DNA of 64,000 nucleotides from an uncultured cyanobacterium. GTDB lineage: Bacteria > Cyanobacteriota > Cyanobacteriia > Cyanobacteriales > CAWUOF01. The notes below the pieces were generated by a model. It was not told the DNA's origin. It saw only the letters and a list, made by a program, of their open reading frames with translations, and did not search any database. A program made the position numbers and the translations under genes. The DNA lies in contig CAVUSO010000001.1 of NCBI GenBank assembly GCA_963744145.1, positions 4,128,001-4,192,000 of the forward strand, given 5' to 3'. The number at the start of each line of letters is the position of its first letter. Position 1 is the stretch's first letter. Positions 8,606-12,661 of the stretch are shown here, in pieces.

Positions 8606-9040
8606 TTGTCAAGTAAAATGAGACAGAGTTTAATCATTGCCTTACTGCTGGGAGCGAATATGGCGATCGCGCCCATCGCTCAAGCAGACGACCCAACAGG
8701 GGGATATTTTGATGGAACCGAGATTCAATGTCCTGGTATACCGAGAGGCGAATCAAACGTTACGCAGTGTAACGAAGTGGCCTTTCAAAAGGCCGATATC
8801 GAGTTGAATGCGGTTTATCAACAGTTGATGAAACAAGCAGATGCAAAGGAACAGGAGTATTTACAGGAGATGCAATCGGCGTGGATTAAGCTCAAGGAAT
8901 CACAATGTGGTTTGACTCAATATTATTATCGTGATGCACGCTTCAGCGATAAGTGGGAATCTTCTTGTGAAGCCGTAATGACCATTCGCCGTGTGCAGGA
9001 GTTAAAAGCTTTGGGAACGGGAATTTCCTGGCAAAAATAA
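8606..9040 (+). CDS. Lysozyme inhibitor LprI (DUF1311)-family exported protein
   Basis: Signal peptide ending AQA; pattern C...ADIELNAVYQQL...Q.AWIK.KE.QC...C...T..RV.EL. Start is probably the ATG at 8618. Confidence 0.8.
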   Translation: MSSKMRQSLIIALLLGANMAIAPIAQADDPTGGYFDGTEIQCPGIPRGESNVTQCNEVAFQKADIELNAVYQQLMKQADAKEQEYLQEMQSAWIKLKESQCGLTQYYYRDARFSDKWESSCEAVMTIRRVQELKALGTGISWQK

Positions 9041-9185
9041 GAATGAGTTGAAATCGGATTAGTTAGAAACTGGATATTATCTCAAACTATTGAGCCTATC
9101 TGGTTTCAATTTCTACTAACAAAACTTCCTATTTACTCTTCGGCGATCGCACCCACCTAATAGCAAACAACCGATAAAATTAGTA

Positions 9186-9468
9186 ATCAAAACACCTAAG
9201 TAAATGCTATCCGCTAAACACTGGACATATCTGGACAACCAGTACATAAAGTGTAGAGATGGCCAGTCTCAGTCAATCGTCAAGCGAAAGACTACGTTAC
9301 TTGGGTCATGGCACCTACGAGTGCTTTCCAGCTTGTAGCTCTGCCGTTCAGTTTTAAACATTCCTATAAAGCTCAAGAAAGTGAACTGAGCCGAACAAGC
9401 CTAAGTAACATTGACGAGGAAACAATTACCATTCGACTACGCTCACGGCGAGCCTGAGCAATCAGAGT
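9186..9468 (+). ncRNA. omegaRNA (HEARO); putative guide ~9186-9205, scaffold from ~9206
   Basis: Lies directly upstream of iscB and has HEARO-type words (CCAG..GACTACGTT, CCAG..CTCTG, AACATTGACGAGG..ATTACC). Visible stems: GCTATC/GATGGC (9206-9211/9258-9263), GTTACTTGGG/CCTAAGTAAC (9296-9305/9400-9409), CTACGAG/CTTGTAG, CTCAGTCAA/TTGACGAG, and a terminal CTGA-GCAA-TCAG hairpin. Confidence 0.82.
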
Positions 9469-9625
9469 TTTAATTATGTCTAATGCAAGTTTTCGTGATC
9501 GACACCAACAAGCGCCCAATTAATCCTGTTCATCCAGCACAAGCACGGCTGTGGTTAACTCAGGGGAAAGCTGCTGTTTTTCGTCGGTTTCCTTTTACGA
9601 TCATCTTGAAAACTGGATCAACTGA

Positions 9626-10773
9626 TACCAATTCTTGCAACTTTGACTACAGATAGTGTAGAGTATAATTTGAGTAGAGTTGAAGGAAAAATATGGCAGG
9701 AGTTTATCACCTAGACATTAAGGAAAGTGAAGCCGAGCTGAAGAAATTGCTCGCAGTGGAAAAAACTGGTCCAGGAAAAGAACGATTACAAGCATTATAT
9801 CTACTCAAGATAAACAAAGCTAAAACAGTCACAGAAGTTGCTGAAATCTTGGGCAGAAATCGAGTTACCGTTCAAGATTGGTTAGCCAAATACCGTCAAG
9901 GAGGATTGGCCAAATATCTGGGGAAAAAAGTGGGTACAGGCCGACCGAGAAAAATTCCTGACTGGGCGGTAAAAAGTTTAGAAAAACGACTAAATGAAGA
10001 GGAAGGATTTAATAGTTATGGGGAAATTTGTCAATGGCTATCATCCACCCTTGGGATAGAAGCTAAATATAAAACCGTTCATCAATTAGTGCATTATAAA
10101 CTAAAAGCCTCACCAAAAATCGCCAGGCCGAAAAGTACAGAACAGTCAAAAAAAAAGTTAGATAATTTTAGAAATCACTTGGCAGAGGACCTAGCTATGC
10201 TGAGTTGGTTTGCCATAACAGTAATGAGTTTAGGAGATAAAGTCAGATTTTTATGTCAAGATGAAACGCGGATCGGCATGAAAACGATTAGTGGGAGAAA
10301 AATTACCATTCGTGGGGTAAAACCAATTGGTAAAGTGCAGTGGAAATTTCAAGCGACTTATATTTATGGCGTAGTAGAGCCAAAGACAGGGGAACATTTC
10401 TTTTACGAGTTTACTCATCTCAATAGTCAATGCTTTCAGATATTTTTAGACTTAGTAGCCGCGCATTTTTCGGATAGTATTTTGATCATTCAGTTAGACA
10501 ATGGTGGTTTTCATAAAGCTAAAAAGTTGGTAATTCCTAAAAACGTTATTTTAATGTTTCAACCATCCCATTGTCCTGAATCAAATCCAATCGAACAGGT
10601 ATGGCAGTATCTCAAAAAGGGATTGAGATGGGAATTACCAAGAAACTTAGATGAATTAAGACTTTTAATTAGTAAAGAACTAGAAAAGATGAATTCAAAA
10701 GTAATTGCCTCAATTACGGGACGAGCCTATATATTAGAGGCACTATCTGTAGTCGGTATTTAGAGAATTGGTA
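9626..10773 (+). mobile_element. IS630-family insertion sequence, 1148 bp, with a 3-bp TGA target duplication
   Basis: Bipartite TIRs: TACCAATTCT/AGAATTGGTA plus a perfect 14-bp GACTACAGATAGTG (9645-9658)/CACTATCTGTAGTC (10741-10754). TGA at 9623-9625 and 10774-10776. Confidence 0.93.
9693..10763 (+). CDS. IS630-family transposase (single uninterrupted ORF)
   Basis: N-terminal HTH; DDE triad QDETR, LDNGGFH, PESNPIEQVW. Confidence 0.95.
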   Translation: MAGVYHLDIKESEAELKKLLAVEKTGPGKERLQALYLLKINKAKTVTEVAEILGRNRVTVQDWLAKYRQGGLAKYLGKKVGTGRPRKIPDWAVKSLEKRLNEEEGFNSYGEICQWLSSTLGIEAKYKTVHQLVHYKLKASPKIARPKSTEQSKKKLDNFRNHLAEDLAMLSWFAITVMSLGDKVRFLCQDETRIGMKTISGRKITIRGVKPIGKVQWKFQATYIYGVVEPKTGEHFFYEFTHLNSQCFQIFLDLVAAHFSDSILIIQLDNGGFHKAKKLVIPKNVILMFQPSHCPESNPIEQVWQYLKKGLRWELPRNLDELRLLISKELEKMNSKVIASITGRAYILEALSVVGI

Positions 10774-12004
10774 TGAAATAACTAAACCAGTTCAGTTAAA
10801 AATAGATCCTGGCTCCAAAACTACGGGGATCGCATTAGTATCCGAGGATGCAGTTATTTGGGGTGCTGAATTAACCCATCGTGGTCAGGCAATTAAAGCT
10901 AGTCTTGAGTCTCGACGTTCACTGCGTCGTACTCGACGGAACCGCAAAACTCGTTACGCGCCAACCACGGTTTTTGAATAGAACTCATCCCAAAGGCTGG
11001 TTAGCCCCCAGTCTTGAACACCGAGTACAAACTACCCTAACCTGGGTAAATAAATTAAAGAAATTTGCACCAATTAGTTCTATTTCCCAAGAACTGGTCA
11101 GGTTTGATCTGCAACGGTTGGAAGATCCTGAAATATCGGGCATTGAGTACCAACAAGGAGAGCTACAAGGCTACGAAATTCGCGAATACTTACTGAACAA
11201 ATGGGGCAGAAGATGTGTTTATTGTGGTGCTGAAAACACGCCTTTAGAGATTGAACATATCTTAGCTAAAAGTAAAGGTGGAACAGATAGAGTTAACAAT
11301 CTTACCCTAGCTTGTCATACTTGTAATCAGAAAAAAGGTAATCAGTCAGTTGAGAAATTTCTCCACAACAAACCAGATGTTTTGAGACGGGTTCTAGCGC
11401 AAGCAAAAGCACCATTAAAAGACGCTGCGGCGGTCAACTCTACCCGATGGGCATTATTCAACCGACTCAAGGAAACCGGATTACCAGTTGAAACCGGAAC
11501 TGGTGGCAGAACCAAATTTAACCGCGTTAAGTTTGGGATTGAAAAGCGTCACTATCTAGATGCAGCCTGTGTGGGTGTGGTTGAAAAATTAACTTTGAAA
11601 ACTACTAAGCCCTTACTGATTACTGCTAAGGGTTGGGGAATGCGCCAAATGTCTACTACCAACCAATATGGTTTTCCCATCAAACACCGCACCAGACAGA
11701 AAGCTTTTTTTGGGTTTCAAACTGGGGATATAGTCCGCGCTATCCTACCGACTGGAAAATACGCTGGAACACATATCGGACGCTTAACTGTTCGCGCCAC
11801 AGGTGTGTTTGAAATGGTGACGGTAAAGGGGAAAGTTAGCCCTGTCAGAGCTAAATACTGCAAAATCCTGCATCGAGTTGATGGATACAATTATGCCGTG
11901 TAATCCACATTTGTCCACATATTCGGCGATTAGAGGTGATCCGATCGCACCAGCAAGTACGGGCGCAAGAGCAATACGCTCCTATGCGATCGCTATGAAA
12001 ACAT

Positions 12005-12661
12005 CTAGATTTTACAAGTTACTAATCGTTGTATAAGTAATTGAGGGTCCCATTTGAACCATTCTGAGTTTTCTACTTCATAATGATTATCGATATATTC
12101 TCCATGTTCACTATATACTATTTTTTGAGAGTAAGGCAGAAATCCTTCAGGAAAATTGATATTAAATGGACGGTCTGAATAATCATTCCAGTATAAATCT
12201 TTATGCCATCCCAAACGCTCACCTAAGTATACCTCGGTTGAAGCATCATTTTTTCCACCTAGTTGTAACCAGATTTTCTTTTGAACACTAAATCCAAAGT
12301 GACCATTACTATATTTTACCCATAATTGATCAATGGTACGAAGATCGGTACAGGGAAATTTATTAATTGCATTTTCATCAAGGTTTGCATCTTGTCCTTC
12401 ATGAGCTGCTTTTAACATTACTTCTTTTGTTTCGTTATCTGCTTCTTTCCATTTCCCAGCTTTAAGAAAATTCAGTAGGTTTGTATAGTCTATTCCTACC
12501 TCTGATTCTAAATTTTCAGATGGAAAACTATCCGCTAAATAAGGTTTAGATAAGTTATCAATACTTTCTAAACTTGATACTTTTTCGCCAGAGATTAACC
12601 AGAAAAGCAATAATCCAGTACAACCTAATTTCTTCAAGGAATCCCAATTTTTTTTCAGCAT
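12005..12661 (-). CDS. GUN4-domain protein with a hydrophobic N-terminus
   Basis: SEVGIDYTNL..FLKAGKWKEADNET...FPCTDLRTIDQLWVKYSNGHFGFSVQKKIW is a canonical GUN4-domain signature. Confidence 0.88.
   Translation of the reverse strand: MLKKNWDSLKKLGCTGLLLFWLISGEKVSSLESIDNLSKPYLADSFPSENLESEVGIDYTNLLNFLKAGKWKEADNETKEVMLKAAHEGQDANLDENAINKFPCTDLRTIDQLWVKYSNGHFGFSVQKKIWLQLGGKNDASTEVYLGERLGWHKDLYWNDYSDRPFNINFPEGFLPYSQKIVYSEHGEYIDNHYEVENSEWFKWDPQLLIQRLVTCKI

Follow-up and report, generated by a model that had tools for sequence, protein, structure and literature searches.

The window analysed here, a 64-kb stretch of DNA from a 7.7-Mb cyanobacterial genome designated G000, harbors an IscB/HEARO element, in which an omegaRNA scaffold precedes the iscB gene. 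The sequence TGGACAnnnnTGGA has two matches in the window, mutually inverted, one at each end of this element. A first-pass annotation of the locus had described CTGGACA twice at 10-bp spacing at the left end, at 9221 and 9231, and the same pair inverted right after the iscB stop. Both pairs are present: the former occupies 9221-9227 and 9231-9237, and the latter, TCCACATTTGTCCACAT, lies at 11904-11920, directly after the TAA at 11901-11903. The sequence TGGACANNNNTGGA has exactly two matches in the window, at 9222-9235 on the forward strand and at 11904-11917 on the reverse strand; in shuffled controls the mean was 0.17 matches, and two matches were reached in one of 100 shuffles. The alignment of the left end with the reverse complement of the right end, also claimed earlier, holds as well, since 9207-9235 and the reverse complement of 11904-11933 share 21 identities of 29/30 positions with one gap, a score reached by none of 2000 shuffles. 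As for the limits, which had been set at 9206..11934, genome copies and empty alleles (see below) place the left one at 9206-9208; homology in 11 genome copies begins exactly at 9206 with unrelated flanks upstream. The right one is not at 11934, as the copies and empty alleles place it at 11940-11942.

The features of the locus are given below. The ends are also named in the orientation of IS607 elements, in which iscB lies antisense. In this orientation, the sequence following the iscB stop is the left end, reading ..CCTCTAATC.. and then two TGGACAA 10 bp apart, and the 5' end of the omegaRNA is the right end, with two TTGTCCA at 10-bp spacing, of which the second starts 23 nt from the terminus.

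9190..9205, + strand: predicted omegaRNA guide segment, i.e., the flank adjoining the element end, presumed to act as guide; the 16-nt guide length is an assumption from general knowledge of IscB
9206..9207, + strand: GC junction dinucleotide, identical to the first two bases of the HIP1 target, so that it could belong to either target or element; also the first pair in the outer stem of the omegaRNA
9206..9429, + strand: HEARO/IscB omegaRNA scaffold (RF02033, 111.2 bits with a gathering score of 83, E 2.8e-23, model positions 1-211)
9208..9240, + strand: omegaRNA-side transposon end, the right end in IS607 orientation, with TGGACA at 9222-9227 and 9232-9237, 10 bp apart
9483..9624, + strand: N-terminal fragment of iscB (PF14239 RRXRR, profile positions 1-48, E 6.1e-15)
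9625..10774 (1,150 bp), + strand: nested IS630-family insertion splitting iscB, with its transposase at 9693-10763 (NF033545, 211.3 bits; DDE_3)
10775..11903, + strand: remainder of iscB with the RuvC, HNH and C-terminal parts (RRXRR profile positions 104-174 and HNH), with a 1-nt frameshift near 10958
11904..11942, + strand: iscB 3'-side transposon end, the left end in IS607 orientation, with TCCA at 11904 and 11914, GCGATTAGAGGTGAT at 11926-11940 and a CC junction at 11941-11942
11943..11948, + strand: GATCGC, remainder of the HIP1 target (GCGATCGC) as seen in the empty alleles of three related insertions; predicted TAM (target-adjacent motif) region

The element thus spans 9206/9208 to 11940/11942, and the GATCGC at 11943-11948 is target DNA, since the empty alleles of related insertions contain that sequence. 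The last two bases of its equivalents differ among the genome copies (GC, GT, GA and AA), and the element starts with GC in the window copy and in all 16 related loci from other genomes. The window copy is a relic no longer able to make IscB, because its gene carries both the IS630-family insertion and the frameshift near 10958. What remains of iscB is 86% identical over residues 108-423 to an intact paralog in the genome (P0001; guided_IscB, 469.8 bits against a cut-off of 175). The frameshift may be a strain difference or an assembly error, since a contig of the public run X1, otherwise without difference over 10780-11177, is one base shorter at 10958. The IS630-family element is an active or recently active insertion sequence (IS), because the genome contains ten more full-length copies with the same limits at 99% identity or above; all copies are bounded by ATA...TAT, consistent with a TA target. 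Two joints in X1 (9621/9622 to 10774/10779), both with short sides, represent copies without this insertion. The whole element is intergenic, lying between the genes for an LprI-like (lysozyme inhibitor) protein at 8606-9040 and a GUN4-like protein at 12005-12661, and intact HIP1 sites occur close to it at 9143 and 11986.

The genome carries 15 HEARO matches, 13 of them above the Rfam cut-off. Eleven start with GCTATCCGC... as the window copy does, and four start with GTCA.... The latter are of the classical type (C1: 402391-402592, 1714392-1714593, 4092781-4093016 and 1707025-1707116) and coexist with the IS607-ended type described below. The right end is present in 10 of the 11 subfamily copies and is conserved to ...TATTCGGCGATTAGAGGTGATCCGATCGC (...GGTGATCCGATCGC), which corresponds to window position 11948. 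These ten two-ended copies comprise three with an intact 424-aa iscB, two that are IS-interrupted, including the window copy, and five mini-elements of 409-477 bp (C1: 2283624-2284100, 3192622-3193097, 3491390-3491798, 5858525-5858984 and 6259447-6261471, the last with a 1.48-kb IS within its left end). The mini-elements are reduced to omegaRNA, T-run and 45-bp right end; therefore, the ends are what is retained. Acting in trans, these mini-elements could provide the three intact IscB copies with additional guides. At the right end, TCCA...TCCA at 10-bp spacing is kept in all ten copies. At the left end, the motif pair is exact in five of the 11 copies and degenerate in one, and its first motif is replaced by GCTTTCAGA or GCCTTCATA in the other five. 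An exact scan of genome contigs with a 22-nt end pattern returned one locus, in Argonema antarcticum, where a decayed iscB copy has the same right end but lacks a HEARO match.

Searching with P0001, we found relatives in 167 of 401 genomes, the window genome included, in a sample with one genome per species, and 29 foreign loci were taken for analysis. All 29 have a HEARO match, and they fall into two kinds without intermediates. Sixteen loci, one per genome (66-89% identity), start with GCTAT..C.AAACA.TGGACAA...TGGACAAC, and the 14 with an intact 3' end terminate in ..TTGTCCA..TGTCCA..GCGATTAGAG......GATCGC. The first 5' motif reads NNNACA in 15 of the 16 and exactly TGGACA in nine. The other 13 loci (63-66% identity) start with GTCA or GTAA and end in conserved GC-rich hairpins followed by ..CGTGA or ..GATGA, the published ISC pattern. 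No hairpin is common to the 3' ends of the 16, whereas those of the 13 are conserved, and the mean fold energy of the 90-nt 3' DNA is -8.2 kcal (z -0.4) for the former versus -13.4 kcal (z -1.8) for the latter. A single branch with 100/100 support splits the two end types in a maximum-likelihood tree of the IscB proteins, for which all rows of the alignment were kept.

Elements with ends of the former kind occur among IS607-type transposons. The genome carries six resolvase-domain matches and 17 Y1_Tnp matches, and one IS607-type element, at C1:2347616-2349540, combines a resolvase gene (C1:2347813-2348382) with tnpB. Its tnpA-side end, GCGATCGGATCACCTCTAATCGC, is the reverse complement of the iscB right terminus with 23 of 23 positions identical. 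This copy is decayed, with a frameshift in the N-terminal part of tnpA, tnpB in two frames and a small IS630-like insert in the left end. We searched its TnpA in 400 genomes of the order and found close relatives at seven loci in seven other genomes (79-88% identity). In every one, the sequence GCGATCG(G/C)....CCTCTAATC....TGGACAA...TGGACAAT lies some 95-110 nt upstream of tnpA, its two TGGACAA motifs being spaced by 10 bp. We used only these seven foreign left ends to build a profile, which gave 13 hits at E 0.01 or below in the 7.7-Mb genome. Ten of these are right ends of iscB/HEARO elements, among them 11904..11942 of the window (E 5.9e-6), and the rest are a solo end, an unexplained site and the end of the local IS607 element. 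No Y1_Tnp match lies within 10 kb of any of these 13 best end matches in the genome. In G061, which has both element types, the IS607 left end and the iscB 3' end are identical at 40 of 60 positions without gaps.

In this genome and at the seven foreign IS607 loci, the autonomous relatives that share these ends thus encode a serine transposase of the IS607 family together with TnpB, not Y1 TnpA. At locus L074, TnpA scores 190.8 bits with transpos_IS607 (NF033518; cut-off 110) and has PF00239 and MerR domains, and TnpB of the IS607 relative scores 157.7 bits with guided_TnpB (cut-off 100). An Rfam search on the IS607 relatives found no family above threshold, so their TnpB RNA is unnamed. A solo IS607-type left end (C1:1873798-1873860, about 65 nt) is homologous to the end of the 2347616 element and adjoins a fructose-bisphosphatase-like gene; an unrelated IS607-type tnpA lies 2.7 kb away. 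Further sites in C1 ending in ..GCGATTAGA(G/A)GTGAT(G/C)CGATCGC resemble the iscB right end and the IS607 left end (6396238-6396284, 6095848-6095897, 2438606-2438655, 2437786-2437811, 6094951-6094976, 2535847-2535869 and 2620663-2620706). No iscB, tnpB or tnpA was found within 3.5 kb inward of them; possibly they represent solo ends, or else small elements forming a family of their own with ends of the IS607 type.

Likeness at the right end was compared directly. The IS607 right ends, from three intact foreign elements and the local copy, directly follow the tnpB stop and read ..TTTGTyCAGrG TTGTrCAGCG TAACACCGTCAG(C/G), and the reverse complement of the window left end reads TTGTCCAGAT ATGTCCAGTG TTTAGCGGATAGC. 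In each, a pair of motifs is spaced by 10 bp, and the second motif begins 23 nt from the terminus. In an ungapped, terminus-anchored comparison of the 16 related iscB 5' ends and the window copy with the four IS607 right ends, a mean of 19.1 of 35 positions were identical. The corresponding values were 7.2 for hairpin-type IscB ends, 9.0 +/- 0.6 (maximum 11.3) for shuffles, and 5.7-8.9 when the ends were slid by 1-7 nt.

These ends are not those of cyanobacterial IS607 elements at large. The left ends of the other serine-TnpA elements of G000 and of 22 foreign loci (at most 61% identity) differ, reading ..TTTAATC..CCGGACA...CCGGACAAT or GGGATGATCAC...; we therefore rejected these elements as end-sharing relatives, with phased GGACA being all they have in common. 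Left ends reading ..GATTTAATC....CCGGACA...CCGGACAAT occur in the distant cyanobacterial IS607 elements L051-L072 (TnpA at most 61% identical). Two phased GGACA-containing motifs thus seem to be common to the left ends of cyanobacterial IS607 elements in general, and the HIP1 context is special to one subfamily. Some serine-TnpA match is found in 16 of the 16 foreign genomes with this IscB type, in nine of 13 with the sister type and in 191 of the 401 genomes as background, a co-occurrence that is weak evidence owing to kinship and genome size.

The target of these insertions was read from alleles with and without the element. HIP1, GCGATCGC, has 7,852 copies in the 7.7-Mb genome, against 41 expected from base composition; empty alleles read ...GCGATCGC... 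and occupied alleles ...GC|TATC.... At the site occupied in L083/L084, 18 of 20 loci of the genus are empty and read agtGCGATCGCgcc, and the comparison is between ...caatagtGCGATCGCgccatc... (empty) and ...caatagt|GCTATCGG...GATTTGATCC|GATCGCgccatc (occupied). L080 is likewise occupied where L145 is empty (...gagtaatGCGATCGCaaattgg), and L081 where L150 is empty. Since three independent iscB insertions have such empty counterparts, the family integrates in HIP1 between GC and GATCGC (iscB orientation) and duplicates no target bases. This mode of insertion, beside a short fixed site and without duplication (GC^GATCGC in the three pairs), does not discriminate against IS607. At the site of the L081 insertion (in G239), L149 of G225 reads GCTATTGC and L150 of G293 reads GCGATCGC; the former is a mutated HIP1 or possibly a footprint. 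For the IS607 relative in G061, six empty loci read GCGAnC-GG-ATATACC, and the occupied one GCGATC-GG-[TATGCC...CCGTCA]-GG-ATATACC. By this alignment the G061 junctions present the classical IS607 picture, with GG repeated at both, in the same kind of site as used by the iscB elements.

No empty allele of the window insertion itself was found when its left flank was searched in 60 relatives, which gave two distant partial matches. Contigs of run X1 bridge the occupied left junction and none of them skips the element; X2-X4 gave almost nothing. The left flank of the local IS607 copy was tried as an empty site, but it is a repeat whose other copies diverge after ATGGACAATG, and was uninformative. 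Among 14 scorable iscB loci, ten have the dinucleotide GC beside the target remainder, matching their 5' end, three have CC (two of them orthologous) and one has CT. In the G000 copies the 3'-side dinucleotide is CC in eight and CT in two (E7 and E8). Elements with CT have moved, since three unrelated sites hold such copies. Shifting the 2-bp crossover to CG or AT was rejected as an alternative, because either position requires a mismatch in the target-derived bases.

Based on these comparisons, we consider it likely that the window holds a dead, non-autonomous IscB/omegaRNA copy from a cyanobacterial clade in which ends of an IS607 subfamily have replaced the hairpins of IS200/IS605, with a serine TnpA acting in trans as the most likely mover. 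Beyond the homology of the ends, its restriction to one clade and the HIP1 target, which the comparisons show, we infer catalysis by TnpA, a role of HIP1 as TAM, and homing. In the proposed mechanism, a serine TnpA supplied in trans would bind the phased TGGACAA motifs and pair the ends, as described for IS607 and IS1535 in the relevant part of PMC6188088, and would then excise or insert the iscB element. The omegaRNA guide would derive from the flank adjoining 9206, and IscB with its omegaRNA would cut the vacated site, where the restored GCGATCGC would serve as TAM, and the element would be restored by homing. The occupied junction, GCTATCCG, would escape cutting. TnpB of the partner IS607 element would read the same flank and motif from the opposite strand, a reading that fits both the antisense rule of Kapitonov et al. 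and the location of the omegaRNA at the transposon right end (Meers et al.).

The earlier annotation had proposed mobilisation in trans by a non-Y1, possibly IS607-type, transposase, and had named three outcomes that would refute it: loss of the repeats from other copies, true boundaries elsewhere with classical hairpins, and Y1 TnpA in autonomous relatives. None of the three occurred in full. The repeats are conserved in all ten right ends and at both ends of the related foreign loci, although not in five of the local left ends; the true right boundary does lie 6-14 nt beyond 11934, yet no classical hairpin is found there. The description of the ends as repeats rather than hairpins is correct for the right end, which lacks a conserved hairpin, but not for the left end, which holds the hairpin CTGGACAACCAG within the omegaRNA 5' stem. 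The comparative evidence largely supports the proposal, with movement by the serine TnpA itself being what we infer from it.

Several observations weigh against this reading. The link to the serine TnpA comes from the shared ends, and precise, duplication-free insertion beside a fixed motif is also typical of Y1 TnpA, for which the genome has the 17 matches. At the 5' end, the similarity is short and confined to the motifs and the terminus, since a profile of three IS607 right ends did not reach the iscB 5' ends; moreover, the left motifs sit in the omegaRNA 5' stem, where RNA structure may constrain them too, and the first of them is absent from five local copies. In this sample with one genome per species, only two of the 17 genomes with this IscB type (G000 and G061) have a TnpA with 79% identity or more to the matching subfamily, and the G000 copy is frameshifted with an insertion in its left end. 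Finally, a strict serine-recombinase crossover requires an identical dinucleotide at both junctions and in the target. Such identity is seen in ten of the 14 scorable loci (GC/GC) and in the IS607 relative of G061 (GG at both junctions and in the empty site). In the sub-clade of the window, the 3' side has CC (eight local copies, L083/L084) or CT (E7, E8 and L080), where the 5' side and the empty site have GC, and the L080 junctions are without any shared base. Strict 2-bp identity at the crossover is thus lacking in this sub-clade.

Some of these points would be expected if the element belonged to the classical ISC group within the IS200/IS605 superfamily, so that a Y1 (HUH) TnpA acting in trans mobilised it as single-stranded DNA and placed it 3' of a fixed motif, GCGATC (IS607 orientation), with its IS607 likeness being secondary. 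This is the view of all IscB elements taken in the ISC account of PMC4810608; Y1_Tnp matches are at hand in the genome, the omegaRNA 5' stem supplies a hairpin at one end, and insertion is precise, site-specific and without duplication, with no shared junction base in L080. We nevertheless regard it as unlikely. The 3' end is without a conserved hairpin, in contrast to the 13 sister-clade loci; both ends match elements that have a serine TnpA and no Y1 gene; no Y1 gene lies less than 10 kb from any of the 13 end matches; and the IS607 relative has moved as a tnpA plus tnpB unit into the same kind of site. It also seems very improbable that the ends resemble each other through a TAM or target requirement (HIP1) common to IscB and TnpB rather than through a common transposase: both element types do adjoin GCGATC, but the similarity extends 45-60 nt inward past the target-derived bases and includes the phased TGGACAA motifs at both ends.

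The decay of the local IS607 copy, the absence of a close TnpA of the matching subfamily from most genomes with this IscB type, and the irregular junction dinucleotides would instead suit a historical accident, in which an iscB element recombined with or entered an IS607 element and the chimera spread by homing or vertical descent, its ends now being recognised by no transposase. This, too, we hold to be improbable. One genome alone contains at least ten insertions whose sites are unrelated, the flanks differ among the 16 loci found in 16 other genomes, and three independent insertions have the same target geometry; homing alone is unable to seed new sites. The mini-elements retain just the ends, and both ends keep their motifs and geometry over the 66-89% range of protein identity. 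We thus favour the IS607-type ends with a serine TnpA in trans, and think it rather probable that one IscB/omegaRNA clade switched from a Y1 (IS200/IS605) to a serine-recombinase (IS607) chassis, with HIP1 serving as both integration site and TAM for IscB and TnpB. If this is true, an RNA-guided nuclease module would be portable between unrelated transposition chemistries, and two unrelated nucleases, IscB and TnpB, would read the 8-bp HIP1 palindrome from opposite strands.

Until now, the only elements to which IscB, the Cas9 ancestor, has been assigned are those of the IS200/IS605 type. In their treatment of ISC elements, Kapitonov et al. (2016, PMC4810608) assign them to the IS200/IS605 superfamily, with hairpins, Y1 in trans and the targets GT|GG, GT|RA and N|ATGA, and state the antisense rule for iscB versus tnpB in termini-sharing elements. 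Meers et al. (preprint 10.1101/2023.03.14.532601) locate the omegaRNA at the transposon right end. On transposase association, Altae-Tran et al. (2023, PMC10691335) draw a contrast between IscB/IsrB and TnpB; a large survey, in the portion dealing with this matter, finds serine resolvase accompanied by tnpB but not by iscB; and the corresponding section of a 2026 review lists IscB activity under IS605 only (PMC13565253). Our literature search on IscB with IS607 or serine recombinase, which covered sources other than supplements and Altae-Tran et al. 2021, found no description of IS607-type IscB elements, and the search on GCGATCGC with TnpB and more broadly found no HIP1 target described. Gene-neighbourhood surveys are blind to non-autonomous elements, and end comparison detects them. 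If a serine TnpA does move these elements, the pairing of a guide-RNA nuclease with a "scarless" transposase would have arisen at least twice for IscB as well, they would represent a natural IscB with a long palindromic predicted TAM, and the abundant HIP1 motif would be tied to the life cycle of a mobile element.

Among known systems, the IS607-ended IscB element is a variation on the ISC and IS607 kinds. Like ISC/IscB-HEARO elements, it has a HEARO omegaRNA at the element end before iscB, is non-autonomous, lacks terminal inverted repeats (TIR), inserts site-specifically without target duplication, and has iscB antisense to the tnpB of termini-sharing elements. Unlike them, it has a 5' end of GCTATC... 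instead of GTCA..., no conserved 3' hairpins, ends that match serine-TnpA elements, and the target GC^GATCGC instead of GT|GG, GT|RA or N|ATGA. The ends of IS607 elements, as characterised in the section of Chen et al. (2018, PMC6188088) on IS607 and IS1535, carry short direct repeats, in many cases recurring every 10-11 bp, and an imperfect inverted repeat whose two arms differ in their distance from the terminus. The same is seen here: the arms of the inverted repeat lie 2 nt inside the left end and 9-15 nt inside the right end, and both ends have 10-bp-spaced motif pairs. Also shared are the lack of TIR and target site duplication, a junction dinucleotide repeated in most members, and autonomous relatives that encode a MerR-HTH/resolvase TnpA and TnpB. 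In contrast to IS607, the cargo is iscB and HEARO RNA on the opposite strand rather than tnpA/tnpB, and the junction dinucleotide, set in HIP1 context, is GC in most cases (a G with G or C after it) rather than GG; in the sub-clade of the window the dinucleotides of the two junctions differ. The five mini-elements, which keep the omegaRNA, T-run and 45-bp right end, resemble stand-alone omegaRNA mini-elements or PATE-like OMEGA derivatives, from which they differ in having ends of the IS607 type.

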